Shown here in pieces: positions 1,027-63,612 of a stretch of 64,000 nucleotides of DNA. Position numbers and translations under genes: made by a program. The notes under the pieces were generated by a model. That model had not been told where the DNA came from. It made no database searches and worked only from the letters and a program-made list of their open reading frames with translations. Positions within the stretch are counted from its first letter, which is position 1. Each line of letters begins with the position of its first letter. This DNA comes from Aridibacter sp. GTDB taxonomy: Bacteria; Acidobacteriota; Blastocatellia; Pyrinomonadales; Pyrinomonadaceae. Where the stretch lies: positions 28,893 to 92,892 of the forward strand of contig DATKCW010000011.1 in assembly GCA_035513035.1 (NCBI GenBank). The letters are read 5' to 3'.

Positions 1027-1028
1027 GA

Positions 1029-1241
1029 AACAAGGATGAAGGGGGGTCGGGGACGAGAAAAAACAGGATGGACAGGATGAGCAGGATTGCGGGGCCTGAC
1101 ACGCAACGTTTCGTGTCTCACTTTGCGGGGAGTCGCATATCCACGATCAAATGCCGACCAAACCTGTGCTGAGGCGAACAGGGATGAAGGGGTTAAGGGG
1201 ATCGGGGAAGAGAAAAACCGGATGGACAGGATAGACAAGAT
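1029..1241 (+). repeat. two ~60 bp direct repeats (GGATGAAGGGG...AACMGGATGGACAGGATRA)
   Basis: 1029-1087 and 1177-1241. The same word occurs at 4945-4990 and, inverted, at 5043-5080. Confidence 0.7.
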
Positions 1242-1288
1242 CACAAGTCCGGGTAGCTAGCGGTCATAGTTCAGATTCGCGAGGAAGA

Positions 1289-2278
1289 TCAGCGTGAAAA
1301 CGCTCCCTCCTCTTTCAGGTCCTTCAGACGCTCCAGGATCGCCTTGATCGTTCCCGATTTGATAAGAGATTCCCAGTGGCCGTCGCCGAAGCGCTCTCCG
1401 CGTACCGCCCCGGTCAGGAGCGTGCGAATGTCGTCGACTCCCGCCGACGCGATGAAGCGCTTGTCTTCCGCCATCCACGGAGCGGACGAACTTGTGTACA
1501 CATAATCCCGCCAGCAATCCTTTGCGGCCTTCCCGAAAAACTCTAAGACCAGCGGATCGTATTCCGGATACGGTACGGTCATCGAGCCGTCCGGGCGCGT
1601 CTCGCCGCCGAACCAACGGGGCGTGTGGACAAAACCTTCCGCATAAAGCCTTGGGAGGTAACCCGTCAGTTCGTCCGCATCGCGCGCTGTCGGATACGGC
1701 CGCGCAAATTCCTCGTATTTCTTACCTTCTTCGTAAGACCGTATGAAGGATTCCTGCTCGGCCGTCTCTACCATTCCTTTCCTCGCCTGCCTCACGATCC
1801 GGATCGCCTCATCGCCTTTGATCGATCCGCCGGCGGCGGCGACAACAATGCACGCGGCGGTCATCCCTGTGCGGCCCAGTCCGCCTTTGCAGTGCACCGC
1901 GATGCGTTTCTTTTCCCTCAGACGGTCGGCGAGCTTGTCGGTCAGCCTGTAGAATTGCTCGGGGCTCGAAGGCAGCGAAACGTCCTTTATGGGGAACCGG
2001 ATCAGGACGATACCTTCATTCAGGCACATCTCAAAGAGGCCGCCGATCTGAAGTTCCCGCAGTTCGTGTTCTTCTATCAACGAAACAAGCGTCGTTGTTT
2101 GGTATCGCCCGCGAAGCCGCTTCAGGTCGGTTCTAAGGTCCCTGTGCCAGGGGCCGGACATCGCATCGCGCTGTTTCTTCCCGGGCGCGAAGGTCATTCC
2201 GAGGTTGTTCAGCATTGGAAACCGGGGCACTTCCAGAAAATCGACCCGGATGGGATGTGTTTCGGAAGTTCTCGGCAT
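1289..2278 (-). CDS. Cys-based protein phosphatase (dual-specificity/CDKN3-like) fused to an uncharacterised ~150 aa C-terminal domain
   Basis: 329 aa ORF with P-loop VHCKGGLGRTG (HCx5R, Cys130). Its start shares one base with the upstream stop (TGATG at 2276-2280). Confidence 0.7.
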   Translation of the reverse strand: MPRTSETHPIRVDFLEVPRFPMLNNLGMTFAPGKKQRDAMSGPWHRDLRTDLKRLRGRYQTTTLVSLIEEHELRELQIGGLFEMCLNEGIVLIRFPIKDVSLPSSPEQFYRLTDKLADRLREKKRIAVHCKGGLGRTGMTAACIVVAAAGGSIKGDEAIRIVRQARKGMVETAEQESFIRSYEEGKKYEEFARPYPTARDADELTGYLPRLYAEGFVHTPRWFGGETRPDGSMTVPYPEYDPLVLEFFGKAAKDCWRDYVYTSSSAPWMAEDKRFIASAGVDDIRTLLTGAVRGERFGDGHWESLIKSGTIKAILERLKDLKEEGAFSR

Positions 2279-2892
2279 CAGTCATACCTTTCAAGCTCTT
2301 CCGGATCCAGGTCAAGCCAGCTTGCTTCCATCTCGACCGGCCCGCCAAAATCGTTCATTCTGATACCCATGCTGACGAAGCTCGCGAGCCTTGCCGCCTT
2401 CCTGCTTATCTCCGGGTTCGTGAGCCGCTCAGTTTCCGGCGCTGTGGCAAGGAGAAGGCTTTTCGTAATGTAGACCTTGTTCTCCGGACCTACGTCGAAG
2501 ATCCCCGTCCCTATGTATCCCTTGTCGTCAGCACTGTAGAAGACCTTTTCGTAGTTTCCTGTCCCGACCAACTCGCGGATGTCGGCGATCGCGCGATCGA
2601 TCAACTCCGTAAAGTGCTCGTCGATCCCCTGGAATCCGCGGCCGGCGGAGCCGGTCGGGATGCCCGCCGCCCTTGGCGGGTCTTCGCACTGGCACGGACG
2701 GATGACGGCGTTGCCGCCTCCTTCCGTGCACGCCCAGGGCGGTCGCGGATCGGACCGGAACGCTAGGAACTGTTCCTTATTGTCGTTGAAAATGAACAGC
2801 GCGTCGGAGTGCTCCGGCCGTTCGATCATCCATCGAAAGTCGCCGAATTCGCCCGGACGGCGAAACGTCACGCCGGTCAGCTCAACGCTCAT
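2278..2892 (-). CDS. conserved hypothetical protein, first gene of a two-gene cassette with the phosphatase
   Basis: 204 aa ORF. Motifs FIFNDN, EGGGNAVIR and AAGIPTG are reminiscent of macro/SLOG-type nucleotide-binding loops but are not diagnostic. Its stop overlaps the next start. Confidence 0.6.
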   Translation of the reverse strand: MSVELTGVTFRRPGEFGDFRWMIERPEHSDALFIFNDNKEQFLAFRSDPRPPWACTEGGGNAVIRPCQCEDPPRAAGIPTGSAGRGFQGIDEHFTELIDRAIADIRELVGTGNYEKVFYSADDKGYIGTGIFDVGPENKVYITKSLLLATAPETERLTNPEISRKAARLASFVSMGIRMNDFGGPVEMEASWLDLDPEELERYD

Positions 2893-3169
2893 TGGTCTCC
2901 TGAATTGAAGTTAGTGGTTCGGGATAGCCATAAACATATCCTCAAAGAACTTGTAGAAGCAAGAAAATTGTTACAAGCAAAAGCGTTATGGCCGGAAGGA
3001 CAAAACAGCCGGCGCATCCGGAATGCGCCTCGTCGTGCTCATACGCGGCATAGAAGACCTCCGTGTCGTCTTCGGGATCGGGTTCTTCGAACATGTTCTG
3101 ATAATGGCTCTGTGAGGAGCAAAACGGAAGTGCGGGAAACGGACCGGGGGAATCCTCTTTGTACGACAA

Positions 3170-3410
3170 GCTTCAGCTTGTCGCCCGCACCGTGAGGACT
3201 GAGAGAAAAGGACTGAGGACTGAGACCGAGTGCGAGCGGCTCTGACCGTGTTGACTGGAGCGCAGGCAGCCTTGCCTGCACTGAGCGCGAAGCGCGAACT
3301 GTACGATAAGCTTCAGCTTGTCGCCCGCTGAAAGGCGGGAAAGAACGGGAAACAGATTATCACAGATGGATTTTGGGATTCGTGTTTTCTGTGTCCTTTC
3401 TTGATTCCGT
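3170..3410 (+). repeat. ~240 bp composite repeat (copy with 55 bp internal insertion)
   Basis: Collinear with 12308-12520: TGTACGAYAAGCTTCAGCTTGTCGCCCGC, GAGGACTGAGAGAAAAGGACTGAGGACTGA, CGAACTGTACGATAAGCTTCAGCTTGTCGCCCGC, GATGGATTTTGGGAT, CTGTGTCCTTT. Confidence 0.8.
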
Positions 3411-3436
3411 GCGATTCGGAGATATGATTAGCGGGT

Positions 3437-3531
3437 GCCGCCGCTACGCGGCTCAGGATCCCGGGGGCGCCGCTTCCCGTGGGTTCCGCTTCGCTCCACC
3501 CACGGCTAAAAGCAGGTCGCCCCTGCGGGGC
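3437..3531 (+). repeat. three-hairpin ~95 nt interspersed element (copy 1)
   Basis: GCCGC-TAC-GCGGC ... CCGTGGGT-N-ACCCACGG-CTAAAAGCA-GCCCC-TGC-GGGGC. Confidence 0.7.
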
Positions 3532-3667
3532 TCTTCCGGACTCCTGTCTCCTGACTTCTGAGTTCTTTAGGTTATGTCGCCTGCTTCGCAGGCTCGATCG
3601 TTTGCCCGGCATCCTCCACGTTCCGCTTCGCTCCACGTTGAGCTGGATGATGGCGCCTGCTTCGCAG

Positions 3668-3826
3668 ACTCGATAGACGCGACAGACCCGATAGACTCGA
3701 TAGACCCGACAGACCCGATAGACTCATTCCGTCGGCGCTTTTCGCTTCGCTCAATGCGGGCAGGCTGCCCGCGCTCCAGTCACCAGACCCGATAGTCTCG
3801 ATAGACTCCCGACTCAACGGACTCAC
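3668..3826 (-). repeat. nonamer minisatellite (inverted orientation) split by a 45 bp word
   Basis: GACTCGATAGACGCGACAGACCCGATAGAC... The interrupting word CGCTTCGCTCAATGCGGGCAGGCTGCCCGCGCTCCAGTC (3738-3782) recurs at 24558-24600 and, inverted, at 29948-29992 and 3246-3295. Confidence 0.75.
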
Positions 3827-3827
3827 C

Positions 3828-3852
3828 GGGCGGGCACAGGTTCCGCCCCTAC
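3828..3852 (-). repeat. GTAG-REP hairpin
   Basis: Reverse complement GTAGGGGCGGAACCTGTGCCCGCCC. Confidence 0.7.
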
Positions 3853-4721: not shown

Positions 4722-5307
4722 TTCTCCACTTCTGGCGGTTGTCGAATTTGAACGCGCGGTGATAACGGGAAAGATGTCAACGGAGCAGGGAGCAGAGGCG
4801 TATGATACCGACATCCGCCGCGGGTGCCAAGGAAAAAAGAAGGACAAGGAACAACACGGATGGATCTTGGGATCCGTGTCGCGGCGAGAGTCGTGTTTTC
4901 CGGTTGTCCGATAAGCTTCAGCTTGTCGCCCGCCGTCAGGCGGGAACACGGGAAGAGACAGGATGGACAGGATAATCAGGATGATATCGCCGATGTTCAG
5001 AATGTCTCCGGGTAACCGGCAGCGTCAAAATTCAGAAGCGGTGATCCTGCCTAATCTGTCCATCTTGTTTCCTCTTCATTCTGTCATTAAAGAAGTCCCT
5101 GCGGTGTTATGCAGAAAAGACCGCCCGACGGGAGAACAGAGTCCGGCTTCGGCATCGCCGTAGGCAGACCGCGGACCCGGATTCCCGTCGGCGGAAGAAA
5201 CCAAGGACAAAGCAAATCACTGGTGTAACGGTCCCTAAAACATTTGAAGGGATTGGGATCCCGACCGGCTCACACGCGCCGGGCACAGGAAACGAACAGG
5301 AGAAACT

Positions 5308-5991: not shown

Positions 5992-6276
5992 TCATCGAAG
6001 AGTATCAACCGCAGAGGGCGCAGAGGGTTGAACCGCAGAGCACGCAGAGAGCGCAGAGATTTTTTGGGCACGCGAGCCCGCGCATTAAGAATCCCGATTC
6101 GACCTAAAGGACCGTAAAAGGATATTCGCTGGTCGGAGACTACCGCTAATAGAATTCCCCGTCGAAAGTCATTTCGACCGACTAACACAATCCCAAAAAC
6201 CCTCTGCGTTCTCTGCGCCCTCTGCGGTTTAAATCTCTTTACGCTCTTGCGTGTTCAAACGGATTCATCGAAATCA

Positions 6277-8411: not shown

Positions 8412-8456
8412 AACGTCCGTCTTTTTTCGGAGCGACTCCGCTCTTCGTATATCATT

Positions 8457-8548
8457 CCACCGCTACGCGGCTCCTAATCAGTTTGGTCACCTTCCCCGGG
8501 GTTCCGCTTCGCTCCACCCACGGCAAAGGCAGGTCGCCCCTGCGGGGC
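8457..8548 (+). repeat. three-hairpin element (copy 2, degenerate hairpin 2)
   Basis: Same order of motifs. The 5-prime arm of hairpin 2 is altered (CCCCGGGGTT). Confidence 0.6.
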
Positions 8549-8587
8549 CCGCGACCTCTGACATTTGAAATTTGCGATCTGGAATCG

Positions 8588-8876
8588 GTCTCCAGTGTCC
8601 GGTCTCCGGTCTCCCGTCTCAGGTTATCGGTCTCCAGTCTCCGGTTTTCTGTCTTCTGACCCCGTATTTCCGTCTTGCCCGTCGCTTGCGCTCCGGTTTC
8701 CGATCGTGCCGCCGCTAACGCGGCTCAGGAATGTGGGGATCGGTCCCCGTGGGTTTCGCTTCGCTCCACCCACGGCTAAAGGCAGGTCGCCCCTTCGGGG
8801 CTTTTCCTGTCTCCTGTTTTCTGTCTTCTGATTTCTGACTCCTGACTTCTGACTCCTGTCTTCTGACTCCTGACTT
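8588..8876 (+). repeat. two heptamer runs flanking element copy 3
   Basis: GGTCTCC-type run 8588-8659 and TGACTCC/TGTCTTC-type run 8806-8876. Confidence 0.7.
8707..8801 (+). repeat. three-hairpin element (copy 3)
   Basis: Near-identical to copy 4, including ~30 bp of upstream leader (8676-8706). Confidence 0.75.
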
Positions 8877-12307: not shown

Positions 12308-12520
12308 ATGTACGATAAGTTTCAGCTTTTCGCCCGCGCCGCGAGGACTGAGAGAAAAGGACTGAGGACTGACTCCGAGTGCGAAGCGCGAACTGTACGA
12401 TAAGCTTCAGCTTGTCGCCCGCCGCAAGGCGGGAACAGGGGCTGGTTAAACGGGAAGAAGGAAGGACACAGATAAACACGGATGGATTTTGGGATCGGTG
12501 TTAACCTGTGTCCTTTTTCT
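12308..12520 (+). repeat. ~210 bp composite repeat (copy without insertion)
   Basis: See 3170-3410. Confidence 0.8.
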
Positions 12521-12774: not shown

Positions 12775-12909
12775 CCTGACTTCTGACTTCTGACTTCTTG
12801 AAGTAGCCCGCGCTCACGCTTGGGCTTCGGACACGGCCTGACTTCTGACTCCTGTTTTCTGTCTCCTGTCTCCTGACTTCTGTCTCCTGTCTCCTGTCTC
12901 CTGACTTCC
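12775..12909 (+). repeat. heptamer runs (TGACTTC/TGTCTCC) interrupted by a GTAGCCCGCGCTCACGCTTGGGCTTCGGACACG word
   Basis: Read directly. The same interrupting word recurs at 28636-28670, 28692-28725 and 30060-30130. Confidence 0.7.
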
Positions 12910-12943
12910 GTGATGCCCGTCGCTCGCGCTCCGGGTTCCGATC

Positions 12944-13039
12944 GTGCCGCCGCTACGCGGCTCAGGAATGTGGGGATCGGTCCCCGTGGGTTTCGCTTCG
13001 CTCCACCCACGGCTAAAAGCAGGTCGCCCTTGCGGGGCT
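12944..13039 (+). repeat. three-hairpin element (copy 4)
   Basis: TGCCGCCGCTACGCGGCTCAGGAATGTGGGGATCGGTCCCCGTGGGTTTCGCTTCGCTCCACCCACGGCTAAAAGCAGGTCGCCCTTGCGGGGC. Confidence 0.75.
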
Positions 13040-13043
13040 CTTC

Positions 13044-13160
13044 CGGTCTCCCGTCTCCCGTCTCCTGACTCCGGTCCCCGGTCTCCCGTCTCCGGTTTCC
13101 GGTCTCCGGACTCCGGTCCCCCGTCTCCGGTCCCCGGTCTCCCGTCTCCGGACTCCGATC
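13044..13160 (+). repeat. degenerate heptamer array (GTCTCCC/GTCTCCG/GTCCCCG)
   Basis: About 16 units directly after element copy 4. Confidence 0.75.
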
Positions 13161-13176
13161 CCTCAGTCTTTCCTTT

Positions 13177-14271: not shown

Positions 14272-14715
14272 TTACAAATGCCGCGTAGTTGGATTCGCCC
14301 GAGCCGGACCGCAGCAGGCAAGTATTCTCACCCAAAATGCGATTTCGTTCCACTTTGGCCGGGTTGTGAACCTCGGAAGCGCCGAGGGCAATCCTGGTGC
14401 CCTTGTTCCGGTCCAGTGGTCAATGGTCGATGGTCAACTGCCAATGGTCAATTCGCATTGGTAAATGATCCGAGTCCTTTGCGGCCTTTGCGAACACCTT
14501 CGCGACCTTTGCGGTTAAACATCCTCTTAACAAACTCGGTTCTGACGAAGATCTTGACCGCGAAGGACACGGAGGTTTTCGCAAAGGAACGCGGAAGGGA
14601 TCAACGTATTACGAATATGACGTCCGCTTCGCTAATACCCGCAGCTAAAGCAGCGGGCTATTCCCGGGAAACCCCCGATCTTGAATTTCCCCAATAGACT
14701 CCCGACTCGACAGAC

Positions 14716-15308
14716 TCAAAAGACCCTGTCTCCTGTCTCCTGTCTCCTGCCTCCTGTCTCCTCTGCCGCCGCTAACGCGGCTAAAGAATTATTTGCCGCC
14801 TTGACCGTGGGCTGCGCCTTCGGCTTGCCCACGGCTAAACTCACGTGTGCGCTACGCGGACGCCTGTCTCCTGTCTTCGGTCTTCTGTCTTCGGTCTTCT
14901 GTCTTCGGTCTCCTGTCTCCCGTCTCCTGCCTTCTGTCTCCTGTCTCCTGCCTTCTGTCTCCTCTGCCGCCGCTAACGCGGCTAAAGAATTATTTGCCGC
15001 CTCGACCGTGGGCTGCGCCTTCGGCTTGCCCACGCCTAAACTCACGTGTCCGCTACGCGGACGCCTGTCTCCTGTCTTCGGTCTTCGGTCTTCGGTCTTC
15101 TGTCTCCTGCCTTCTGTCTCCTGTCTCCTGTCTCCTCTGCCGCCGCTAACGCGGCTAAAGAATTATTTGCCGCCTTGACCGTGTGCGCCTTCGGCTTGCC
15201 CACGGCTAAACTCACGTGTGCGCTACGCGGACGCCTGTCTCCTGTCTTCTGTCTTCGGTCTTCGGTCTTCTGTCTTCGGTCTCCTGTCTCCCGTCTCCTG
15301 CCTTCTGA
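14716..15308 (+). repeat. higher-order tandem: (heptamer run + variant three-hairpin element) x3
   Basis: Element copies 5-7 start at 14764, 14965 and 15138 (periods ~201 and ~173 bp), separated by TGTCTCC/GGTCTTC heptamer runs. Lies in the divergent gap between the kinase and M50 protease genes. Confidence 0.8.
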
Positions 15309-15364
15309 CTTCCAATTCACAATTCACGATTTACGATTTACCCGCAAGATATTACTCTAGAGCA

Positions 15365-16456
15365 ATGAGATCGTGGTCAATAAGGCTCGGCAAGCTTTTC
15401 GGCATCGACGTATTCATCCACTGGTCGTTCTGGCTTCTGATCATCTGGATCGTCTATCTGCAGTTCAGCGCAGGAGGCGGACTGCCCGAGGCGCTATGGG
15501 CGTCCGGATTCGTCTTTGCCCTTTTCGCGTGCGTCGTCTTCCACGAACTAGGCCACGCCTTGACGGCGCGGCGGTTCGGGATCGGTACCAAGAACATCAC
15601 GCTCTACCCGATCGGAGGGGTCGCCTCTCTCGAGAAGATGCCGGACGAACCCGGCCGCGAACTCCTCGTGGCGATATCCGGCCCGATGGTGAACCTCGTA
15701 ATCGCGGCACTTCTTTGGGCTTACTTTGCAGTTTCCGGCAGTTTTCCCGATCCGGCAATGCTAGAGTCCGCCGAACGCCTCTCGGACGTCCCGTTCCTTT
15801 TCACGCTATTTACCGCCAATCTGATCGTCGCCGCGTTCAACCTGATCCCGGCATTCCCTATGGACGGCGGACGGGCGCTCAGGGCACTGCTCAGCACATT
15901 CCTCGACCGCGGTCTCGCGACCCGAGTCGCCGCTTCGGTCGGGCAGATCATCGCGATATTTTTCATCTTTCTGGGTTTCTACTACAACCCCTGGCTTATC
16001 CTGATCGGGCTTTTCGTTTTCCTGGGCGCCGGTGTGGAATCGGCGGGCGAAAGGACCAAGTCGGAACTTGCGGGCCTGACGGTCAAGGACGCGCTGATGA
16101 AACGGTTCACCGGCCTAAGCCCTTTCGACACTCTGGGCACGGCCGTCGAAGCGCTCTTGAACAGCCAGGAGACGGACTTCGTCGTGCTCGACGCCGACGA
16201 ACCGATAGGGCTACTCACCCGGAACGAAATAATCAAGGGGCTTTCGGAACAAGGTCCGGAAGCGAGGGTCTCGGCGTATATGAACCGGGAGTTCTTTGTC
16301 GTGGGACCGGACCTGAAGCTTGCGGACTTTCTTCAGGAGGTCGTCGCGCACGAAAGAGACGTCGCGCTGGTGATGCAGGACGGGGAGCTTGTGGGGCTGA
16401 TCAACCGGGAGAACGTGGAAGAAAAGCTGATGGTCCAACGGGCGCTGAGACAGTAG
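15365..16456 (+). CDS. site-2 protease (peptidase M50) with C-terminal CBS pair
   Basis: ORF 15218..16456 trimmed to MRSWSIRLGKLFGIDV (ATG 15365); upstream codons are repeat DNA. HELGH motif, FNLIPAFPMDGG, CBS-like C terminus. Confidence 0.85.
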   Translation: MRSWSIRLGKLFGIDVFIHWSFWLLIIWIVYLQFSAGGGLPEALWASGFVFALFACVVFHELGHALTARRFGIGTKNITLYPIGGVASLEKMPDEPGRELLVAISGPMVNLVIAALLWAYFAVSGSFPDPAMLESAERLSDVPFLFTLFTANLIVAAFNLIPAFPMDGGRALRALLSTFLDRGLATRVAASVGQIIAIFFIFLGFYYNPWLILIGLFVFLGAGVESAGERTKSELAGLTVKDALMKRFTGLSPFDTLGTAVEALLNSQETDFVVLDADEPIGLLTRNEIIKGLSEQGPEARVSAYMNREFFVVGPDLKLADFLQEVVAHERDVALVMQDGELVGLINRENVEEKLMVQRALRQ

Positions 16457-17119
16457 GGGCAGGACCTGTGCCTGCCCCCGCTATATCAACCGGACGCCCG
16501 GCCTCATCCGTAAGGCTCAATTATCAGCGAAAGATCCGGCTCGCCGTAGTGCTCCCATTTATCCCACCGGTCCACAAGATCCGACTTGACGGGATTGTCA
16601 CGGATGTACGAAACCGTTTCCCAAAGATCATCGATTGACCTGATTACGTGATCATAATATTGCCGCTGCCACAGTTTCCCCTTTTCCTTCTTCCACCATT
16701 CACGTGTAGTCATGCTCTTGAATTCCCCGCATATTTTCCCGAGGTTAGAGTCTGAATCCCCGATACCGATCAGGCCATGAAAATGATCGGGCCTAAAGGT
16801 GTATGAATAAAGGTTGAATTGACGCTTTTCTCGGAGCTGAAGCAGGAGCGATTTGCAGGCACGTGCAAAACTCTCATCGGCGAAGCACGGTTTTCGTTCT
16901 TTGGCGGCAATAGTTACGAAGTGTATTCCTGAGTCATAAGCGTCGGGAGAAAGTCGAATGCTGTTCTTTCGAAAGACACAGCCATCTATGTCGGGCATGG
17001 TGAGGATGCCTCCTTATTATTGGCTTGGTTTTTTTTTCAAAAAGGGGGCAGGCACAGGTCCTGCCCCTAAATAAACACTTATAAAATCAACGGAGGGCAG
17101 GCACGGGTCCTGCCCCTAC
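16453..17119 (-). mobile_element. RAYT locus: RAYT gene bracketed by inverted GTAG-REP hairpins
   Basis: GTAGGGGCAGGACCTGTGCCTGCCCC at 16453-16479 (+). Two copies in opposite orientation at 17044-17070 and 17092-17119. Confidence 0.75.
16504..16998 (-). CDS. REP-associated tyrosine transposase (RAYT, IS200/IS605-like Y1 HUH enzyme)
   Basis: 164 aa. HUH motif PDHFHGLI, catalytic-Tyr region QRQYYDHVIR, C-terminal YIRDNPVKSDLV. Visibly AT-richer than its neighbours and flanked by inverted REPs. Confidence 0.8.
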   Translation of the reverse strand: MPDIDGCVFRKNSIRLSPDAYDSGIHFVTIAAKERKPCFADESFARACKSLLLQLREKRQFNLYSYTFRPDHFHGLIGIGDSDSNLGKICGEFKSMTTREWWKKEKGKLWQRQYYDHVIRSIDDLWETVSYIRDNPVKSDLVDRWDKWEHYGEPDLSLIIEPYG

Positions 17120-20088: not shown

Positions 20089-20267
20089 CGGAAACCTCTC
20101 GGGACGGATTTCGGGCAGAGCCTTTTGAAAGAATCTGCGACCGGCAGCCTGGGGGCGGCTGTAACCCGGTGCGGGAAAGTAGCTTGCGTGTTCGGGGGAA
20201 GGTTAAACCGAGGGGAGGACGTTAGTCAATCGTGAATCGTAAATCGTGAATCGTGAATAGAGTTGGC

Positions 20268-20382
20268 GGAGTCTGTCGGGTCTGTCGAGTCTATCGAGTC
20301 TGTCGGGTCTGTCGAGTCCGTCAAGTCTATCGAATCTGTCGGGTCTGTCGTATCTGGCGGGACTGTAGTGTCTGTCGAGTCG
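20268..20382 (+). repeat. nonamer minisatellite (same family)
   Basis: GTCTGTCGGGTCTGTCGAGTCTATCGAGTCTGTCGGG... Confidence 0.8.
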
Positions 20383-20385
20383 CGA

Positions 20386-20481
20386 GTCCCGTAGGGACGA
20401 CCTGCTTTTAGCCGTGGGTGGAGCGAAGCGAAACCCACGGATCGAGTCGTCCAATCTCCGCGAGCCGCGTAGCGGCGGCAG
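20386..20481 (-). repeat. three-hairpin element (copy 8, only inverted copy)
   Basis: Reverse complement carries GCCGC-TAC-GCGGC, CCGTGGGT..ACCCACGG-CTAAAAGCA, GTCCC-TAC-GGGAC. Confidence 0.7.
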
Positions 20482-20740
20482 GCCGAATTCGCCGTGCTTA
20501 AGGATTGAACCGCAGAGAAGACAAGAAAAAAACAGGACACGGATCTTCACAGATTCTGAAAATAACTCTGGCGCTTGCCGAAAGAGTTATCCTGAAACAT
20601 CCGTGTTGATCCGTGTCCTGTCTCTTCTCTGCGCGCTCTCTGCGGTTGATCTTCTTATTCCCGTCGCTACCGCTCCGGGTACCGATTCCCTCTATTCACG
20701 ATTCACGATTTTCTATTCACGATTCACTATTTACGATCGA

Positions 20741-21637: not shown

Positions 21638-21719
21638 ATGTTCTCTCCTGAATTATGTTCGGAAAATTGGATGTTCTGCCTGTAGAACACTGCGGAGCGG
21701 GGAATTGTGACAGGGCAAT

Positions 21720-21744
21720 GTAGGGGCGGGACCTGTGCCCGCCC
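21720..21744 (+). repeat. GTAG-REP hairpin
   Basis: GTAGGGGCGGGACCTGTGCCCGCCC. Confidence 0.75.
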
Positions 21745-21745
21745 G

Positions 21746-21910
21746 GTGAGTCCGGCGAGTCGGGAGTCTATCGAGTCTGTTCAGTCTGTTCGGTCTGTCG
21801 AGTCTGTCGGGTCTATAGGGTCCGACGGGTCTGTCGGGTCTAACGGGTCCGTCGGGTCTATCGGGTCTATAGGATCTGACGGGTCTGTCGAGTCTGTCGG
21901 GTCTGTCGGG
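21746..21910 (+). repeat. nonamer minisatellite (same family)
   Basis: GAGTCTATCGAGTCTGTTCAGTCTGTTCGGTCTGTCGAGTCTGTCGGGTC..., immediately after the REP at 21720. Confidence 0.8.
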
Positions 21911-43307: not shown

Positions 43308-43787
43308 CTCGTCGTTTTCGGACCCATCGTCCGATCTTAAAATTTAGACTTCTTGATTGGAACCAGACGTCACGATTATAGACACAACGAGAACGGAGAC
43401 AAAACTTTTTGCCCGCAGCCGCCGCATACTTCCGGCTTACAGATCAACGTTCAAAGAGGCCGATCGAAAACCAGAGCGTGAGAAAAGGCGCCTACGGTTC
43501 ACGGCCGAGGCACGGTACGAATCAGCTTGGGTGTGAGGATACTATGCCGATCCGGCGGCTTCGCCGGCCGGATGTGCGGAATGGCTTTGCCTTTCTGGCC
43601 GAGCTTTCAGAAGAAACCCGGATGCCGATTTGAAGATCTTGCGGCTTCGCCGTCTTGGACCGCGGGCAACCTGCCCGCAAGGTCTTCAAAAGTTGAGCCC
43701 TCCGCAAGTCTCTTCCTCTGTCCTCGCGGCATAGCCGCAAGGCATTGCCGGGCTCAGTCTGTCGAGTTTTTTCACCGCAGAGGCGCT

Positions 43788-43898
43788 GAGGCGCGAAGTA
43801 AGATCGGTACGTTTGCTGATTCGGATCAGCGCCGTCGGCGCGGCAGGTCTGTAGAATCGCGGAACCTGAAGGAACCTTTGGCCGCTTCAGCGGCGACA
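43788..43898 (+). repeat. 111 bp direct repeat, right copy
   Basis: See the left copy. Together they bracket the VWA-TPR gene. Confidence 0.85.
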
Positions 43899-43969
43899 CG
43901 TTGCGGGCGGGTCGCCCGCGGTCCATAGTCGGCGCAAACTGATGTTCGCGGTACCTCGACAGGACAGCC

Positions 43970-49676: not shown

Positions 49677-49938
49677 TGAGCGTTCAATTTACCACAAACG
49701 AGGGTTTCTTCGATGCGGACACGCGTACGATCCGTTGGAGCCCTTGCCGGGAACCACGTCTGTACGCTTCCGGGGCGGGATTGGTTCTCGGTCTTCCTGC
49801 CTGAGTCGTGGGAATTCGAGGGGACAGCAAAAAGCCCTGCCGTCGTGACCGGGTCTTTCAGATCTGGCCGCACTAAAGGGGTTGAGTCGTTAATGTATAT
49901 CCCCATGAAATCAAATTCGACCAGGCCAAGATCTTTTG

Positions 49939-50301
49939 TTACTTGGATATATAGAATCTAAGAATTCGGCCCGAGCATTTGTCCACATCTACATACCCGC
50001 TGCCACCGCCTTCGATCCCATCTCCAAGGCCTTCTTTGAGCTTGAATTTAACGAGAAACCGGTCCCCTTCGTCTTCAACAACTATGCGAAGCCTGTCCAA
50101 GTCTGTATCGTTCTTAACGAAATCTTTGGCAATATCAACGGCCTCTTTCTGAGAGACCTCCATATCCCCTCCCTGACGCCGGAGAACACATTCGGGGGGT
50201 TGATTCTCGCACCGCGAGAGCGCTGCCTCAGGCGGCACTTCGTGCGAATAAGGAGCACAGTTGGCCAACAGCAGGCACGTCATTAGAAATGTGTGTTTCA
50301 T
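49939..50301 (-). CDS. small lipoprotein, hypothetical
   Basis: Trimmed to MKHTFLMTCLLLANC (lipobox). 120 aa, lies in the AT-richer islet. Confidence 0.5.
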   Translation of the reverse strand: MKHTFLMTCLLLANCAPYSHEVPPEAALSRCENQPPECVLRRQGGDMEVSQKEAVDIAKDFVKNDTDLDRLRIVVEDEGDRFLVKFKLKEGLGDGIEGGGSGYVDVDKCSGRILRFYISK

Positions 50302-50475
50302 TGTTTTCCGCTTAGCGTTGTGTTCACGGGATCTCTGTCGTGAGACCCGTATAACCGGGATTTGATTCATCGAGATGGCGAACGCTCCATCATAGACCAT
50401 TCCATTCGTTCGCCAGATGACGTATAATGAACCGTCAGATGGCGAACAGTTGAGTTTCGCGGGATTTTGCTAAAA

Positions 50476-50961
50476 ATGGTACTGGAAAAGACGGAATCTT
50501 TGAAGAAGTCGAGCGTAACAAGTGCACAAGGTATGAGCGCGGTTTCTGACAGGGCTTTGATCGATAAGTATTTGGGTATCACCGCACCGAATACAAAGAC
50601 GTTGATGTCTCAAATCGAAAGGGGCTTTCCATTCGACGCCTTCAGGCACTTCCAGAGATCTACAGGTTTACAAGCTTCGAGCCTTAAGCTCGTGATCGGA
50701 ATAAGGCCCCGGACGTTCGACAGGCGAAAGAACGCCAATCGATTTACGACCGCAGAGTCTGACCGGCTTGTTTCCATCGCCCGTCTCTTTGTAAAGGCAA
50801 CGAGACTCTTTGAAGGTGATAAGGAGGCAGCCAGGAGATGGCTAACTTCAGATAGCAGGGCATTCGGAGGACTGACTCCTCTTGAAATGGCAAAGACAGA
50901 GACGGGAACCAGAGAGGTTGAAAAACTGATCGGACGTCTGGAGCAAGGAGTGTTTACCTAG
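50476..50961 (+). CDS. type II antitoxin, Xre/MbcA/ParS family (DUF2384 toxin-binding domain)
   Basis: C-terminal FGGLTPLEMAKTETGTREVEKLIGRLEQGVF is typical of DUF2384. Immediately precedes the RES gene. The listed TTG 50467 is an alternative start. Confidence 0.8.
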   Translation: MVLEKTESLKKSSVTSAQGMSAVSDRALIDKYLGITAPNTKTLMSQIERGFPFDAFRHFQRSTGLQASSLKLVIGIRPRTFDRRKNANRFTTAESDRLVSIARLFVKATRLFEGDKEAARRWLTSDSRAFGGLTPLEMAKTETGTREVEKLIGRLEQGVFT

Positions 50962-50975
50962 GTGTTTGTCGGATA

Positions 50976-51437
50976 ATGCTGTCTTGCTTCCGAATCGTTA
51001 AAGAACAGTTCGCAAATGACGCATTCAGCGGCGACGGAGCATATGAGTTCGGGGGGAGATGGAATTCGCCCGGATCTCGTGTCGTATACGCATCCGAATC
51101 GCTCGCTCTGGCTTGTCTGGAGATGCTGGTTCACCTGGACAAAGCATCGCTTCTCCGGAGCTATGTCTTCATAGAGGCCCGGTTCGACGAAGGCCTCGTC
51201 AGGGACATCGAAAGCCTGACAGCCCTTCCCGCCGACTGGCACCATTCTCAAGGGTCGATCGAACTCCAGTCGGTAGGTGATGAATGGATCGTGAGCGGAA
51301 CCAGCGCGGTCCTCAGGGTTCCTTCCGCGGTGATCCCGAAAAGCGTTAACTACCTGATCAATCCGGAGCACGAAGATTTCAAGAGTATTGCCTTCTCGGG
51401 CATTGCACCGATCGATTTTGATCCGAGATTGAAGTGA
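50976..51437 (+). CDS. RES domain toxin (NAD+-targeting RES family)
   Basis: 153 aa. GGRWNSPGSRVVYASESLALACLE, with R..E..S residues in the usual spacing. Confidence 0.85.
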   Translation: MLSCFRIVKEQFANDAFSGDGAYEFGGRWNSPGSRVVYASESLALACLEMLVHLDKASLLRSYVFIEARFDEGLVRDIESLTALPADWHHSQGSIELQSVGDEWIVSGTSAVLRVPSAVIPKSVNYLINPEHEDFKSIAFSGIAPIDFDPRLK

Positions 51438-51465
51438 TCAGATCTGCGAGGACGCGTTCGAAGTG

Positions 51466-51494
51466 AAAAGCCCGGACATCGTGACCGGGCTTTT
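51466..51494. terminator. bidirectional hairpin between the RES and HigA genes (copy 2 of the tRNA-Asn terminator family)
   Basis: AAAAGCCCGG-ACATCGTGA-CCGGGCTTTT between convergent genes. Confidence 0.6.
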
Positions 51495-51531
51495 CATCTG
51501 ACTGCGACAAATGGCCGCCGGGATAATCGCC

Positions 51532-51918
51532 TCAGATGAACAAAGCCGCAGAGACATTGAACCGCTCGGAAAGGCGCTTCGCCTGTTCCTTGCTGATCTC
51601 GCGCTTTCCGTTGACCACCTGTGAGACCCTTCCGCTGGATCCGAAGAGGTCGACCAGATCGGCCTGCTTCAGGTCGTTCGCCTCCATAAGGAACAGCAGC
51701 CTGGAGCGAGGCGTCGTCTTCGTCTTGATGGGAAATGCTTCCTTTTCGTAGTTCTCAACGAGCACCGCGAGGAGTTCCAAGAGCTTGAGTTCGTCAGGCG
51801 AGAGCCTCTCTTTGTCCATCAAACGGTTCACAATCTCCATCGTTCTTTCGTATTCTTCCTCCGATTTGATCACTCCCGGGACCGTCTCGCTCAAGAGAAC
51901 TGCATATTCGTTTTTCAT
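51532..51918 (-). CDS. higA: HigA-type antitoxin (HTH-XRE)
   Basis: 128 aa. C-terminal HTH (LKQADLVDLFGSSGRVSQVVNGKREISKEQAKRLSERF). GGTGAGGAG RBS, downstream of higB. Confidence 0.8.
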   Translation of the reverse strand: MKNEYAVLLSETVPGVIKSEEEYERTMEIVNRLMDKERLSPDELKLLELLAVLVENYEKEAFPIKTKTTPRSRLLFLMEANDLKQADLVDLFGSSGRVSQVVNGKREISKEQAKRLSERFNVSAALFI

Positions 51919-51978
51919 TACTCCTCACCTCTTCGAACTCCGACTTGGAAATGCGTGCGTCTAGACGCTTTGAAGTGA

Positions 51979-52275
51979 TTACTCACAGCCTTCTTTCCAT
52001 TTGTCCGAGTCGTATTCCGAATGTGTCAGCAGCATTCGAACCATCACGATCGACGCCTGAAAATTGATCTTCGCAATCAGCCTGAACTTGTTTCCGCCAA
52101 TGTTGAATACATAGCAAGAACCGACCCTGTCACAATTGCGGAACGTCTTGCGAATATCGATCAGACTCTCCCATTCAGCATCTATAACGTGTTCGATCCA
52201 ATGGTCCGCCGAGCTGCGAGCCCGGGAATGGGTTCGGCAGAAGGTGTCGATGTTCTTTAAGCCAAGTACCTTCAT
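51979..52275 (-). CDS. higB: HigB-type toxin (mRNA interferase)
   Basis: Trimmed to MKVLGLKNIDTFCRTH...NIGGNKFRLIAKINF...THSEYD. The listed ORF extends falsely through the tRNA gene. Confidence 0.8.
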   Translation of the reverse strand: MKVLGLKNIDTFCRTHSRARSSADHWIEHVIDAEWESLIDIRKTFRNCDRVGSCYVFNIGGNKFRLIAKINFQASIVMVRMLLTHSEYDSDKWKEGCE

Positions 52276-52400
52276 TCGGTCATCGCCGCTCCCGCCGACG
52301 CCAACTATCCTACCAAAACGGCAGGATAGATTCAAATGAAAACTGCCGTTTTCGTAGCAATTTTCTAACGGTTCTCGGTGGGGTTGGACAAATCCAAAGC

Positions 52401-52430
52401 AAAAAGCCCGGCCGTCGCGACCGGGCTCTT
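52401..52430 (-). terminator. rho-independent terminator of tRNA-Asn
   Basis: On the minus strand, 6 nt after CCA: AGAGCCCGG-TCGCGACG-GCCGGGCTTTTT. Confidence 0.7.
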
Positions 52431-52436
52431 CAGATG

Positions 52437-52511
<75 letters not shown>

Positions 52512-54242: not shown

Positions 54243-54536
54243 GCGGGAAGCAGTGAGCAGTGAGCGGTGAGCAGTAAGTAGGTAGGGGCGTAGATCAGGA
54301 CTGAGAGGGAAGGACTGAGGACTGAGCGTCGTGCATCAGGTATCATGTGTCGAGTACCTGCCAGCATTCGTGACCCGAAGAGTCAAAGCGAACCATCGCG
54401 TAGCGATGCCGTAACTTAGCCGCGGGCTTCAGCCCACGGAACTTCTGTAAAGGTTCTTCCGCCTGTTCCCGTGGCCTGAAGGCCACGGGTAAGGTAATTG
54501 TGTCGCTGACGCGACGCGTTGCAGACCGAATACTGA

Positions 54537-54603
54537 GGGCGGGGACAAGCCCCGCCGACCATTGAGTTCCGGAACCCCGGGCGGGGACGAGCCCCGCCCC
54601 TAC
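54537..54603 (-). repeat. variant REP doublet (GGCGGGG-N-CCCCGCC stem)
   Basis: GGGCGGGGACAAGCCCCGCC and GGGCGGGGACGAGCCCCGCCCCTAC, ending 7 nt before the crcB ATG. Confidence 0.6.
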
Positions 54604-58020: not shown

Positions 58021-58233
58021 AGTTAATCAAGATTACCTTATTCGAGTCTCTTGGAGGCCTTCGGACCGCGCACCCCGCCCGCATAGTGAGTACTGAGACG
58101 AAAGTACTGAGTACTGAGCCGGATCGCAAACTACTCGAACCGCAATGTACGATAAGCTTCAGCTTGTCGCCCGCCGCCAGGCGGGAACGGAAGTCGGACA
58201 CCTGGACCGCGGGCGGCCCGCCTGTATTTTCTT

Positions 58234-58257
58234 GTAGGGGCGGGACCGGTGCCCGCC
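58234..58257 (+). repeat. GTAG-REP hairpin
   Basis: GTAGGGGCGGGACCGGTGCCCGCC. Confidence 0.7.
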
Positions 58258-58334
58258 CTTCCGTTTGACCTTCTTGACGTCCGCTGCCGCTATGCGGCTG
58301 ATCGGACTGCGGCCACAACCTTGTCACATCCCTG

Positions 58335-59797: not shown

Positions 59798-59937
<140 letters not shown>

Positions 59938-59956
59938 GTGTTATAAATTATCGATT

Positions 59957-61871: not shown

Positions 61872-62270
61872 ATGAAACGGACGATTCTCATCTTCGGATT
61901 GCTTGCCGGCACAGTGCTGATCCTGTTTGAGCTCAGCAGGCTCTCGCTGTGGCGGCGAGAAAGCACGTCCGAGGTCTTTATCATTATCTCCGGTCTTTCG
62001 TTCATCGCGGTCGGCTTCCTTTTGAGCAGATTCCTCGCTCGCGAGGAAAAGCGGACGAAATCCGGGAATCTGAACGATTCTGACCTTACGAAGCAGGAGC
62101 ACAGGGTCCTGACACTGGTTGCCGAGGGGATGTCGAATTCGGAAATTGCCGAAGAACTGTTCATCACCGAGAGCACGGTCAAAACACACGTGTCCAACGT
62201 ACTCTTAAAACTCAACGCAAGGCGTAGGACCGAGGCCGTGAAGATCGGGCGCGACCTGGAGATAATCTAG
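61872..62270 (+). CDS. membrane-anchored LuxR/GerE-type HTH regulator
   Basis: Trimmed to MKRTILIFGLLAG. Two TM helices, then LTKQEHRVLTLVAEGMSNSEIAEELFITESTVKTHVSNVLLKL. Confidence 0.75.
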   Translation: MKRTILIFGLLAGTVLILFELSRLSLWRRESTSEVFIIISGLSFIAVGFLLSRFLAREEKRTKSGNLNDSDLTKQEHRVLTLVAEGMSNSEIAEELFITESTVKTHVSNVLLKLNARRRTEAVKIGRDLEII

Positions 62271-62275
62271 ATCTT

Positions 62276-62530
62276 CTTTGCGTTTCTTGGCGACTTGGCG
62301 GGAGGGCATCTGGTTTCTCGAAGCACTAGTCGATAAAGACTTAAGACTTCTCGCAAAGGCGCAAAGGCGCAAAGCCGCTAAGTTCCGCAAAGAAATTAGC
62401 GTCAGTAGAACTTTATGTTCTTCCTTTGCGTTCCCTTGCGACTTGGCGACTTTGCGGGAAGGCATCTGGTTTCTTGAAGCACCAATTGATTAGGACTTAA
62501 GACTTATCGCAAAGACGCCAAGACGCAAAG
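62276..62530 (+). repeat. tandem pair of ~100 bp hairpin-type elements (CTTTGCG ... CGCAAAG arms)
   Basis: Units 62276-62375 and 62422-62530 share GGCATCTGGTTTCTYGAAGCAC and GACTTAAGACTT cores. Confidence 0.75.
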
Positions 62531-62727
62531 GACAACAAAGGGTTCCAAGTAACTCGACAAGTCGCTCCCTAAAATTCTCTGCGCTCTCTGCGTGCTCTGC
62601 GGTTCAATCCTCTCCTGTTCTCCGCGGTTACATCCTCATTCTTTAGTACCAATTCCCCCCGCATCCCCCAATATCCTACTTTTGGCCGATGTGGTTTTGC
62701 TGCCGTTAGACTAGACTCGGCGGCATT

Positions 62728-63237
62728 ATGAACAACTACATACTCAGATACGGGATAGGCGGCGCGATCGTATCGATCGCGCTCGGGCTGTTCAACTGGT
62801 TCACGGTCGCTCAATGGCACGGAGTGACGGCATCGCAGACAGTCGGCTGGCTTTCGATCATCCTTTCGCTGATGTGCATTCCGCTAGGCATAAGGTACTT
62901 CCGCGACAAGCTGAACAAAGGGCGTGTCTCGTTCGGCGAGGGCTTCAGGACCGGACTCGGCATCACTTTCGTCGTTTCGGTCCTGATGTACTTCTACAGC
63001 GCGCTCTTCTTCATCTTCCAGGGCGACGAGTTCATCGAGTGGACGAAGCGCGGCCTTTCGCCTTCGGAGATCGCCGCGTACGAACAGCAGATCGCACAGT
63101 CGCCGGCGTGGGTTTACACGCCCTGGTTCCAGGCGTTCCTCCTGTTCGTTTCAATACTCTTGATCGGGGTGGTCATCACGGCGATCAGTTCGCTGATATT
63201 GAAGCGGGCAGGGGAGCCGCCGGGAGATCGGCATTGA
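62728..63237 (+). CDS. DUF4199-like membrane protein
   Basis: 169 aa, 4 TM, N terminus MNNYILRYGIGGAIVSI typical of DUF4199. Confidence 0.6.
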   Translation: MNNYILRYGIGGAIVSIALGLFNWFTVAQWHGVTASQTVGWLSIILSLMCIPLGIRYFRDKLNKGRVSFGEGFRTGLGITFVVSVLMYFYSALFFIFQGDEFIEWTKRGLSPSEIAAYEQQIAQSPAWVYTPWFQAFLLFVSILLIGVVITAISSLILKRAGEPPGDRH

Positions 63238-63583
63238 CCTGGTGCCCTGAATCAGGGATCAGGGATCAGGTATCAGGTATCATGTGTCGGTAGTCTGACC
63301 GTCAGGGAGGGCGAGACTCAGGCGTCGGGGGTCTGCGACCAATGATCATGTATCAGGGATCAAAAGTCTCCCTTTTGCGCTCCTTTGCGAAGTCCTTTGA
63401 GTCCTTTGCGGTTAAGTATCTGCTTCTGTCCGGATTGTCCGTTGAAGATCTAAACACAAAGGACACAAAGCGCCGCAAAGCGAAGTCCGGTACGCCGCGA
63501 GATGTTTGTGAGAAGGACTCATTTACGCCCTCCCTCACGGTCGGGCTACCGACACCGCTCACAATTCACCGCTCACCGGACGT

Positions 63584-63602
63584 GGACAAGCCCCGCCCCT
63601 AC
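63584..63602 (-). repeat. half REP (variant type)
   Basis: GGACAAGCCCCGCCCCTAC; only the 3-prime arm plus GTAG (reverse complement) is present. Confidence 0.5.
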
Positions 63603-63612
63603 AATTGATCGC

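Follow-up and report, generated by a model that had tools for sequence, protein, structure and literature searches.

Intergenic DNA of an Aridibacter genome segment as a mosaic of hairpin repeats and tandem arrays of period 7 and 9

The genes on a 64,000-nucleotide (nt) stretch of Aridibacter sp. DNA (contig DATKCW010000011.1 of assembly GCA_035513035.1, forward strand, positions 28,893 to 92,892; the whole stretch is called the window below) are separated by unusually long gaps, which raises the question of what this intergenic DNA is made of and how it came to be there. Where the genes have Pfam support they are ordinary housekeeping genes, including RmuC, GGT, an aminotransferase, ADH, a radical-SAM enzyme, a DEAD helicase and several peptidases. 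The window has a G+C content of 57% and comes from a short-read metagenome-assembled genome (MAG; NCBI 'MAG TPA' Aridibacter sp.) of the Blastocatellia/Pyrinomonadaceae, with proteins of which its glycine C-acetyltransferase and its transposase show 100% identity. An earlier reading of the letters alone, which we refer to as the sequence-only reading, described almost every gap as a mosaic drawn from one shared vocabulary of hairpin words and short tandem repeats. Our analysis leads us to favour, at somewhat better than even confidence, an explanation in which the mosaic consists of accumulated single-stranded DNA hairpin elements moved by HUH/Y1 transposases, together with tandem arrays that arise or expand beside them, piled up in the unprotected parts of the spacers.

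Extent and reality of the mosaic

Comparison of the window with itself by BLAST places 5,653 nt in non-self alignments, 5,551 nt of them non-coding, which corresponds to 32% of the non-coding DNA (generously defined) as against 0.2% of the coding DNA; five dinucleotide shuffles of the gaps gave 0–30 nt in such alignments. With matches to 12 loci of two other species added, the repeat mask reaches 6,447 nt, or 10% of the window, and 128 nt of it are coding. The main part of these 128 nt is a 46-nt stretch (22142–22187 and 23394–23439) common to two tandem DUF4440 paralogues (22008–24261). The mask covers 58% of the 10,745 nt of gaps previously listed, with matches in 25 of 25 gaps (16% to 89% of each), so the "10 kb" of repeat given by the sequence-only reading is the summed length of the gaps; the repeat-derived DNA itself comes to at least 6.2 kb within them and at least 6.4 kb in the window. 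That almost every gap is affected is true of 25 of the 32 non-coding intervals that reach 100 nt or more; the other seven carry no repeat, and the segments next to genes are unique.

The hairpin words W1 to W4, the tandem arrays and the three-hairpin element described below were all recovered where they had been read, by word search, Tandem Repeats Finder (TRF) and a covariance model respectively. The word search gave six copies of W1, three of W2, two exact copies of W3 plus variants and three of W4, and TRF recovered heptamer and nonamer arrays in the gaps named. Only 1 of 95 annotated modules and arrays lies in coding DNA. Apart from a tRNA-Asn gene and one match to the Acido-Lenti-1 motif, searches of the window found no CRISPR, riboswitch or other Rfam family.

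As the source is a short-read MAG, and such assemblies can mis-size long arrays, the mosaic might be suspected of being an artefact of assembly or chimerism. However, the independent Logan assembly of SRR8556377 is 100% identical to the window over 34333–40545 (6,213 nt, two gaps included), and both ends of the matching contig fall within repeats. A scan of 185,579 species genomes for W1 returned two species only, a complete chromosome (CP065003.1; its loci are L001–L011 below) and an Aridibacter famidurans MAG, and the W1 loci of both also hold the three-hairpin element, nonamers, heptamers and the GTAGCCC element; the vocabulary occurs, too, in a third Aridibacter-like genome, the MAG GCA_003389245.1. 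(L014, L015 and L035–L038 denote loci of further related or same-sample sequence.) Together with the almost perfect avoidance of coding DNA, this refutes an artefact as far as the existence of the modules is concerned, and leaves uncertainty for the copy numbers of arrays only, which may be collapsed in a short-read MAG; as an account of the mosaic we give it next to no credence. The exact W1 pattern occurs 8 times in the 4.49 Mb of CP065003.1 versus 5 times in the 64-kb window, so the sizes of these families differ greatly between related genomes.

Hairpin families and transposases

Three of the hairpin families (A, A2 and GTAGCCC) are tied to transposases of the HUH/Y1 type. Types A and A2 are repetitive extragenic palindromes (REPs), imperfect palindromes of 20–40 nt with an unpaired 5' GTAG, and their identification as the classical REPs of a system with a REP-associated tyrosine transposase (RAYT) is borne out by a transposase gene lying within the mosaic itself (16504–16998, − strand). 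Its product matches Pfam Y1_Tnp (2e-10) and the NCBIfam equivalog NF047646 (98.3 bits, cutoff 80), and the closest match in the PDB is 4ER8, E. coli TnpA-REP, in which H-M-H aligns with H-F-H of the window protein and DYIYINPVK with SYIRDNPVK, the segment of the catalytic Tyr (Y-I-x-x-N-P-V). Two direct-orientation type A REPs lie upstream of the gene (17095–17119 and, with a TTAG tag, 17046–17069, both −) and one inverted type A REP lies downstream (16453–16477, +), which completes a classical REPtron layout; flanking of a RAYT gene by inverted REPs is also seen in L035 and L036. The window contains eight type A copies and two of type A2, all extragenic and, with the single exception just given, tagged GTAG. 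The other type A copies are at 3828–3852 (−), followed by nonamers, at 21720–21744 (+), followed by a 16-unit nonamer array, at 23197–23221 and 23234–23257 (both −, in direct orientation) and at 58234–58258 (+). By eye, type A carries a fixed nonamer-periodic 3' flank (21745–21780 and 3790–3827).

The two type A2 copies (54579–54603 and 63578–63602, both −, read directly) have the loop GCTCGTC or GCTTGTC, and REPs of this type with the loop GCTTGTC flank a RAYT paralogue, P0140, on L035 from the same sequencing run, which is 52% identical to the window RAYT and scores 117.1 bits against NF047646. The GTAGCCC type (G) is present at 12801–12835 (+), as two copies interleaved with heptamers (28627–28659 and 28690–28725, +), and as a degenerate pair around a CTTTGCG inverted-array element (63283–63315, −, and 63524–63556, +, the latter with a degenerate tag). 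The enzyme linked to it is divergent and was seen in a relative, where a Y1_Tnp open reading frame (ORF) at L001 2781–3299 (CP065003.1) lies between inverted clusters of GTAGCCCGCGCTGACGCTTGGGCTTCGGACACG, the GTAGCCC word; it passes the Pfam Y1_Tnp cutoff (34.8 vs 23) and falls short of both NCBIfam cutoffs (34.8 vs 80 for RAYT, 35.8 vs 55 for IS200). A phmmer search with both Y1 transposases against all ORFs of the window and of L001–L016 (~206 kb) returned only the two already known.

The three-hairpin element (B) is under structural constraint. Trained on 11 copies from the window, a covariance model, R1, detects 12 there (11 on the + strand, one on the −) and, at E<1e-7, 16 more in three other genomes, 28 in four genomes in total. 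Across these 28 copies 97% of the cells are paired, against ~40% in slid controls, and double changes are seen in 11 of 18 pairs (67 cells), a level reached by none of 500 shuffles; the pairs comprise 481 Watson-Crick, 5 G-T and 2 A-C, and an unpaired CTAA after hairpin 2 is nearly invariant. The + strand copies include 3435–3535 (95.7 bits), 8454–8552 (78.1 bits), 8706–8805 (100 bits), 12944–13042 (99.2 bits), 26712–26811 (80.1 bits), 26935–27038 (92.3 bits) and 28495–28596 (77.7 bits), and the sole − strand copy is 20382–20481 (98.2 bits). Three further copies (14763–14864, 14964–15065 and 15137–15235) form part of a higher-order tandem repeat of the element plus heptamers (14725–15312, +), to which TRF assigns a 201-nt period (2.0 copies, 93% matches) and a 170-nt period (2.4 copies, 89%), so that whole composites must have been duplicated as blocks. 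R1 also weakly matches the W4 blocks and the 169-nt repeats, which makes several of the proposed families relatives of one another: there is indeed one common vocabulary of more than a dozen families, several of them being subfamilies of one multi-hairpin superfamily.

The Acido-Lenti-1 match at 54394–54439 (−; 41.1 bits, Rfam gathering score (GA) 37) has an inverted partner at 54466–54519 (+), and a scan of the whole window at E<=5 gave no other copy. Two full three-hairpin regions scanned alone against this family (RF01687) gave 9.8–16.8 bits, the higher value at 26935–27038, where the gathering threshold is 37. A metagenome scan with the three-hairpin core returned 18 loci, of which one was genuine (a duplicate of the L015 locus), and no transposase was seen beside the element.

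The remaining hairpin words recur in fewer copies. The I module (GCCCGTCGCT..CTCCGGGT.CCGAT) stands directly 5' of the three-hairpin element at 8677–8707 (+) and has further copies at 12915–12945, 20660–20686 and 26850–26877, and one at 28470–28497 that was read by eye and matched by no search; its homology to the GTAGCCC REP is suggestive by eye, the MAFFT alignment is ambiguous, and we do not claim it. W1 is a double hairpin (4905–4947 and 58146–58188, both +), often placed 2–3 nt after another hairpin, and the DNA fold of the copy at 12394–12436 has z = -4.1. It also forms a composite of W1, xACTGAG heptamers, a W2-like hairpin and W1 (3160–3341, +, with W1 at 3160–3188 and 3300–3341), which at 12309–12436 (+) lacks the W2-like insert; judged by eye, the block at 3246–3290 that is absent at 12375–12393 would reflect either an insertion or a deletion between GAG(T/C)GCG repeats. 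The W2 hairpin, flanked by nonamers, is at 3739–3781 (−), 24556–24598 (−) and 29950–29990 (+), with a variant at 3253–3290 (+), and W3 is at 38167–38192 (+), 43657–43682 (+), 43899–43924 (−) and 26591–26616 (+). Two W4 blocks (F0 hairpin plus CTCCACGTG..CGTGGAG), divergent relatives of the three-hairpin element, occupy 34304–34439 (+), with a third copy at 3573–3667 (−). The J hairpin (ACACGGATGGATTTTGGGATCCGTGT) is found at 12465–12513 (+), 3352–3379 and 4853–4879, the L module with the M hairpin at 38284–38372 (+), 40319–40411 and 43555–43595, and the 169-nt repeat at 40461–40629 (+) and 43726–43895.

The loops of these hairpins are distinctive. Among perfect triloop hairpins, C(GNA)G or its complement C(TNC)G accounts for 25 of 55 in non-coding DNA versus 7 of 75 in coding DNA (Fisher p = 3e-6). 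GCGNAGC and GCGNNAGC are extraordinarily stable DNA mini-hairpins (PMC13037366), a stability that hinges on the closing C-G pair (PMC3201870). In W1, the second hairpin carries GNNA loops (GCAA, GCCA, GTCA, GACA and others) rather than the GNRA loops of RNA, and the hairpin modules are not followed by T-runs. These features point towards hairpins that would act at the DNA level, without being decisive. A general role as terminators was considered and dropped, as 25 terminator-like sites were found where 21.7 are expected.

Tandem arrays, composite units and turnover of the gaps

The tandem arrays have periods almost exclusively of 7 and 9, or multiples of these. Period-7 and period-9 arrays number 18 and 9 in the window, 18 and 6 in the CP065003.1 loci, 6 and 6 in A. 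famidurans and 8 and 5 in GCA_003389245.1, and across the four genomes there are more than 20 unrelated array units, for example CCTGTCT, TGGTCAA, AATCGTG, GGTGAGC, TACTCAT and TCGTAAA. Two compact relatives nearly without the words of the window carry period-7 arrays of yet other units, some of them as inverted pairs between genes. The arrays are coupled to the hairpins: for 17 of 29 the nearest hairpin module is no more than 15 nt away, where random placement in the gaps would give 1.9 ± 1.4. This coupling has a direction, in that 16 of the 28 three-hairpin copies have an array no further than 40 nt from their 3' end, as against 6 of 28 for the 5' end; the type of unit varies.

Heptamer arrays of the GTCTCCT type flank I plus three-hairpin modules at 12837–12908 and 13042–13162 (+), and heptamer arrays surround such modules at 8586–8654 and 8805–8875 (+). 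A nonamer array of the GGGTCTGTC type with about 27 units lies at 34055–34303 (+), and others are at 21766–21911 (16 units, +), 3666–3725 (−), 24495–24529, 27032–27089 and 29882–29939. AATCGTG heptamers (20228–20258) and 12.6 nonamers (20269–20381, +) abut the 3' end of a three-hairpin element, TGGTCAA heptamers are at 14417–14452 (+), and minor heptamer arrays are at 26822–26842, 26619–26649, 28723–28788, 54249–54275 and 63251–63282. In a different arrangement, inverted CGCAGAG and CTCTGCG arrays face each other across a spacer of ~140 nt at 6008–6228, and similar CTTTGCG or CTCTGCG elements are at 14472–14600, 20510–20650, 62286–62530, 62567–62613 and 63370–63480. An array of 20 GTCTCCT units (59798–59939, +) ends 18 nt before the ATG (59957) of a peptidase S15 gene; as only TGTGTTATAAATTATCGATT lies between, a leaderless or very short-leader promoter is possible.

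The sequence-only reading had the modules in different orders and orientations; these are not free, and there is a clear grammar of composite units. The recurrent ones are I, then the three-hairpin element, then an array; a REP followed by nonamers; nonamers, W2 and nonamers; W1, xACTGAG heptamers and W1, then J; L followed by M; and the higher-order tandem repeat (TRF periods of 170–201 nt) of the three-hairpin element plus heptamers.

The positions of this material are not conserved between species. In GCA_003389245.1, whose aminotransferase is 82% identical, the gene order ADH, aminotransferase, GGT, DUF4440, DUF4440, DUF4097, M50 is kept, and the RAYT gene and the gene for a 990-amino-acid peptidase are absent from the locus. 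The only long collinear blocks in the five orthologous gaps, of 35 nt (97%) and 74 nt (84%), adjoin start codons and come from two gaps; collinearity is otherwise confined to repeat words, in matches of 12–34 nt, and the remainder of each gap is made of different modules from the same vocabulary. As these gaps keep a gene-proximal stretch only, turnover must be fast. Gaps are short in a 93%-identical relative and in two relatives at 81–83%, for which short-read contigs may be biased against repeats.

One gap (21638–22007) illustrates the arrangement, since a terminator (21985–21958) adjoins the upstream gene, the 74 nt at the downstream start are conserved in L015, and a REP and 16 nonamers lie between them. 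Repeat words also occur within what look like signals. Inverted heptamer words form terminator stems or long inter-gene hairpins at window 21958–21985, L015 16598–16882 and L037 17016–17089, either as GGAGTCAGAAG/CTTCTGACTCC followed by T6 or through pairing of GATTTTG arrays with CAAAATC arrays. The nonamer unit, read on the other strand as TCGACAGAC, supplies a −35-like TCGACA every 9 nt (29863–29891 and 20288–20315), and one promoter-like site, TCGACA-N17-TATCAT, runs exactly up to the ADH start region. A further promoter-like site, TTGCCC-N16-TATCAT at 24416–24389, is kept in a relative as TTGACC-N16-TATCAT (by eye). The block GTGCTGAGTACTGAGAGATGAGTACTGAG (28283–28307) immediately precedes the aminotransferase start. 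Unlike the remainder of that gap, it is kept in L015 (97%) and, by eye, in L014; the GAGTACT word may here make up a leader or operator.

A region of different character is found beside the tRNA-Asn gene. A 43-nt imperfect direct repeat (37 of 43 identical) occurs at 49826–49868 and 52398–52440, the second copy being the terminator hairpin just 3' of tRNA-Asn (52437–52511, −). The DNA between the copies has a G+C content of 51% compared with 58–59% in the flanks, is free of the repeat vocabulary, and contains two toxin-antitoxin pairs, an Xre-like gene (50467–50961) with RES (50976–51437) and HigB (51979–52275) with a helix-turn-helix gene (51532–51918). The interval 49826–52511 looks like a small islet integrated beside a tRNA gene.

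Origin of the mosaic and its relation to known systems

How might such a mosaic have been produced? With at least three REP families tied to HUH/Y1 transposases, a plausible course is that, by analogy with the REPs, the route that recognises their hairpins and cuts and pastes or copies them would also spread the three-hairpin element and W1 to W4, or these would piggy-back on it. These words and the REPs have in common GC-rich stems kept by compensatory change, a tendency to land against each other, conserved unpaired tags at the foot of the stem (GGCTAA, which is TTAG-stem on the other strand, and GTAC-stem in W1) and GNA or GNNA loops. The period-7 and period-9 arrays would arise and grow by replication slippage at very stable hairpins, or would be preferred landing sites, with composites as the outcome. 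In the five gaps compared, the material builds up and is replaced outside the promoter and leader next to the gene, in one case between the terminator of the upstream gene and the next promoter, and these would be the parts to which selection gives no protection. A few pieces have probably been co-opted, for instance as intrinsic terminator stems or −35-like hexamers.

Several observations weigh against this explanation. In the ~290 kb examined, neither the three-hairpin element nor any of W1 to W4 was found with a transposase beside it, so their mobility is argued by analogy. Inverted REP doublets (REPINs), which are thought to be the mobile unit of REPs, do not occur in the window, where the 23197/23234 and 17046/17095 pairs are direct and the rest are single. 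Taken whole, the three-hairpin element folds no better than shuffles (z = -0.2 to -0.5), so the structural case rests on covariation, and its GNA loops are on the opposite strand from the GNNA loops of W1. Slippage alone leaves the periods of 7 and 9 unexplained. No clean pair of an empty and a filled site was obtained among the relatives compared, as the closest of them, L014 (93% amino-acid identity), is already too diverged and shares one gap that is too rearranged for clean boundaries. There is also a strand bias in the window (11 of 12 three-hairpin copies and 6 of 6 W1 copies on the + strand) that could not be linked to replication, the GC skew being ~0; the seven W1 sites of CP065003.1 (0.03 −, 1.96 −, 1.98 +, 3.08 −, 3.20 +, 3.38 − and 3.65 −, in Mb) do not split into two replichores either. 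The skew is uninformative, and the bias gives no support to an orientation that follows replication, as in the strand-biased single-stranded transposition of the IS200/IS605 type.

The hairpin modules, above all the three-hairpin element, might instead be structured-RNA genes or cis-elements of the Acido-Lenti-1 type, the mosaic then consisting of RNA-level regulators, stabilisers or processing sites. The authors of that motif, who gave 89 representatives, including tandem copies ~200 nt apart, and no function, rated it a likely RNA (PMC2864571); one window copy passes its gathering score, and the three-hairpin element has its layout of hairpin, GGCUAA, linker and hairpin, strong covariation and conserved unpaired bases. 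It is difficult, however, to reconcile this with 12 copies in 64 kb, including a tandem triplication, with an orientation independent of the flanking genes and with positions that are not conserved between species. The pairs are almost purely Watson-Crick (1% G-U), the triloops are of the DNA-stable GNA type and not RNA tetraloops, and in 21638–22007, the sole gap with both borders mapped, the modules lie between the upstream terminator and the conserved region at the start of the next gene. The two full elements scanned alone fall far below the Rfam threshold, and the others were unmatched in the window scan. We therefore consider an RNA-level origin quite unlikely, and these observations suggest that Acido-Lenti-1 may itself be one face of a DNA-level palindromic repeat family and not a small-RNA gene.

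Retention of the repeats by the host for a function of the DNA itself, as sites for nucleoid-associated or regulatory proteins, as supercoiling or insulator elements, or as building blocks of promoters and terminators, seems to us rather improbable as well. Canonical terminators whose stems consist of inverted heptamer words (21985–21958; L015 and L037), the −35-like TCGACA hexamers supplied by nonamers, with the promoter-like site ending at the ADH start, and the conserved GAGTACTGAG word block upstream of the aminotransferase (97% in L015 and, by eye, in L014 too) all speak for it, and the bacterial interspersed mosaic elements (BIMEs) of E. coli bind integration host factor (IHF) and gyrase. 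Yet orthologous gaps hold different unit sequences and types of module, a single binding protein is hard to square with more than 20 unrelated heptamer units, and neither a period of 7 nor one of 9 is in phase with the helix. Sites resembling terminators or promoters show no overall enrichment, and related genomes (L038 and L036) have short, nearly repeat-free gaps. Some families, notably the CTTTGCG/CTCTGCG inverted-array elements, could also be miniature inverted-repeat transposable elements (MITEs) moved by a DDE transposase that recognises subterminal repeats rather than HUH-type hairpins. Their arms of 3–5 direct heptamer or octamer units face each other across 45–140 nt spacers, there are five or six of them in the window and others in L015 and L002, and two spacers have a common sequence, GGTTAA...GAAGATCT (read directly); on the other hand, spacer sequence and length mostly differ, no DDE transposase was seen in the window or loci, and neither a target-site duplication nor a parent element was found. 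We consider this unlikely.

A bolder proposal, which we offer tentatively and think unlikely to be correct, is that in Pyrinomonadaceae one process couples stable GNA-loop hairpins to the birth of arrays of fixed 7- or 9-nt step, whatever the unit. Such a process could be nicking and rejoining by an HUH enzyme, or stalling and re-priming of the polymerase at the foot of the hairpin. If this were true, the mosaic would be the footprint of an undescribed repeat-generating mechanism, and the heptamers of the cyanobacterial short tandemly repeated repetitive (STRR) sequences could be a convergent case. The attachment of arrays to hairpin elements is measurable here, which makes it testable how arrays of this sort originate.

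The sequence-only reading held that this might be something undescribed. The literature that could be searched gave no account of it in Blastocatellia or Acidobacteria: neither the host phylum, nor the coexistence of more than 12 families that make up at least 10% of the DNA, nor the common GNA-loop design, nor the measurable attachment of heptamer and nonamer arrays to hairpins was found there. Every component, however, is similar to something of a known kind (REP/RAYT, the Acido-Lenti-1 motif, STRR-like arrays and DNA mini-hairpins), and as a kind the whole cannot be called undescribed. In practical terms, contigs end in these repeats, so short-read assemblies of abundant soil bacteria are broken by them; the repeats also inflate intergenic length and could serve as strain markers.

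Classical BIMEs combine two or three REP types in alternating orientation with about seven defined linkers. The mosaic resembles those of E. coli in being built of palindromic units and linker motifs in extragenic DNA, and the claim that it is far denser stands: it has more than 12 families and a load about ten times higher, the copies are mostly on the same strand instead of alternating, and tandem arrays take the place of linkers. The three-hairpin element agrees with RF01687 in the order of hairpin, GGCUAA, a linker of ~8 nt and a short hairpin, and in being multi-copy, sometimes in tandem at ~200-nt spacing, in Acidobacteria; it differs in that a further hairpin is present on the 5' side and the middle stem is much longer, and the evidence for it points to DNA-level palindromes rather than a small RNA. 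The d(GCGNAGC)/d(GCGNNAGC) mini-hairpins (PMC13037366, PMC3201870) have the same C-G-closed GNA triloops that dominate here, with GNNA in hairpin 2 of W1. They are known as a structural motif, from studies of oligonucleotides and from a few phage origins, and do not form a repeat family; what is new here is their appearance as the common loop of a genome-wide repeat set.

With the REP/RAYT systems of Proteobacteria and Cyanobacteria the window shares the short GC-rich palindrome with unpaired 5' GTAG (PMC3733652, PMC3116915), a dedicated HUH/Y1 transposase gene flanked by inverted copies, the extragenic location and the presence in one genome of several REP types, each with its own RAYT. A 2013 survey reported GTAG REPs in Proteobacteria, Cyanobacteria, Chloroflexi and the Planctomycetes-Verrucomicrobia-Chlamydiae (PVC) group, and in Acidobacteria only relatives flanked by terminal inverted repeats (TIRs) (PMC3733652), relative to which the host phylum is new. 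Other differences are that the copies are single or in direct pairs instead of inverted doublets, that a fixed nonamer-periodic flank is present, and that REPs are a minority of the repeat load. GTAG-REP/RAYT systems are thereby extended to Acidobacteriota, with several REP types and their own transposases in one genome.

The arrays, finally, resemble the STRR sequences and small dispersed repeats (SDRs) of cyanobacteria in bringing together, in tandem and in non-coding DNA, heptamer units of many kinds. Many unrelated heptamer units are the usual behaviour of cyanobacterial STRRs, and in heterocystous cyanobacteria small hairpin repeats are reportedly found in or next to heptamer arrays, at positions that vary between relatives. 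Among the units of the window only TGGTCAA is presumably a rotation of one of STRR1–3, namely STRR2 (TTGGTCA). A regulatory effect of heptamer repeats in Nostoc is reported in a preprint (bioRxiv 10.1101/2022.06.06.494920). Aridibacter, of the Acidobacteriota, is a second, unrelated lineage whose intergenic DNA is filled by arrays of many different heptamers; it differs from the cyanobacteria in phylum and unit sequences, in a second preferred period of 9, in the directional coupling of arrays to the 3' end of a 100-nt three-hairpin element, and in the presence of RAYT-linked REPs within the same mosaic.

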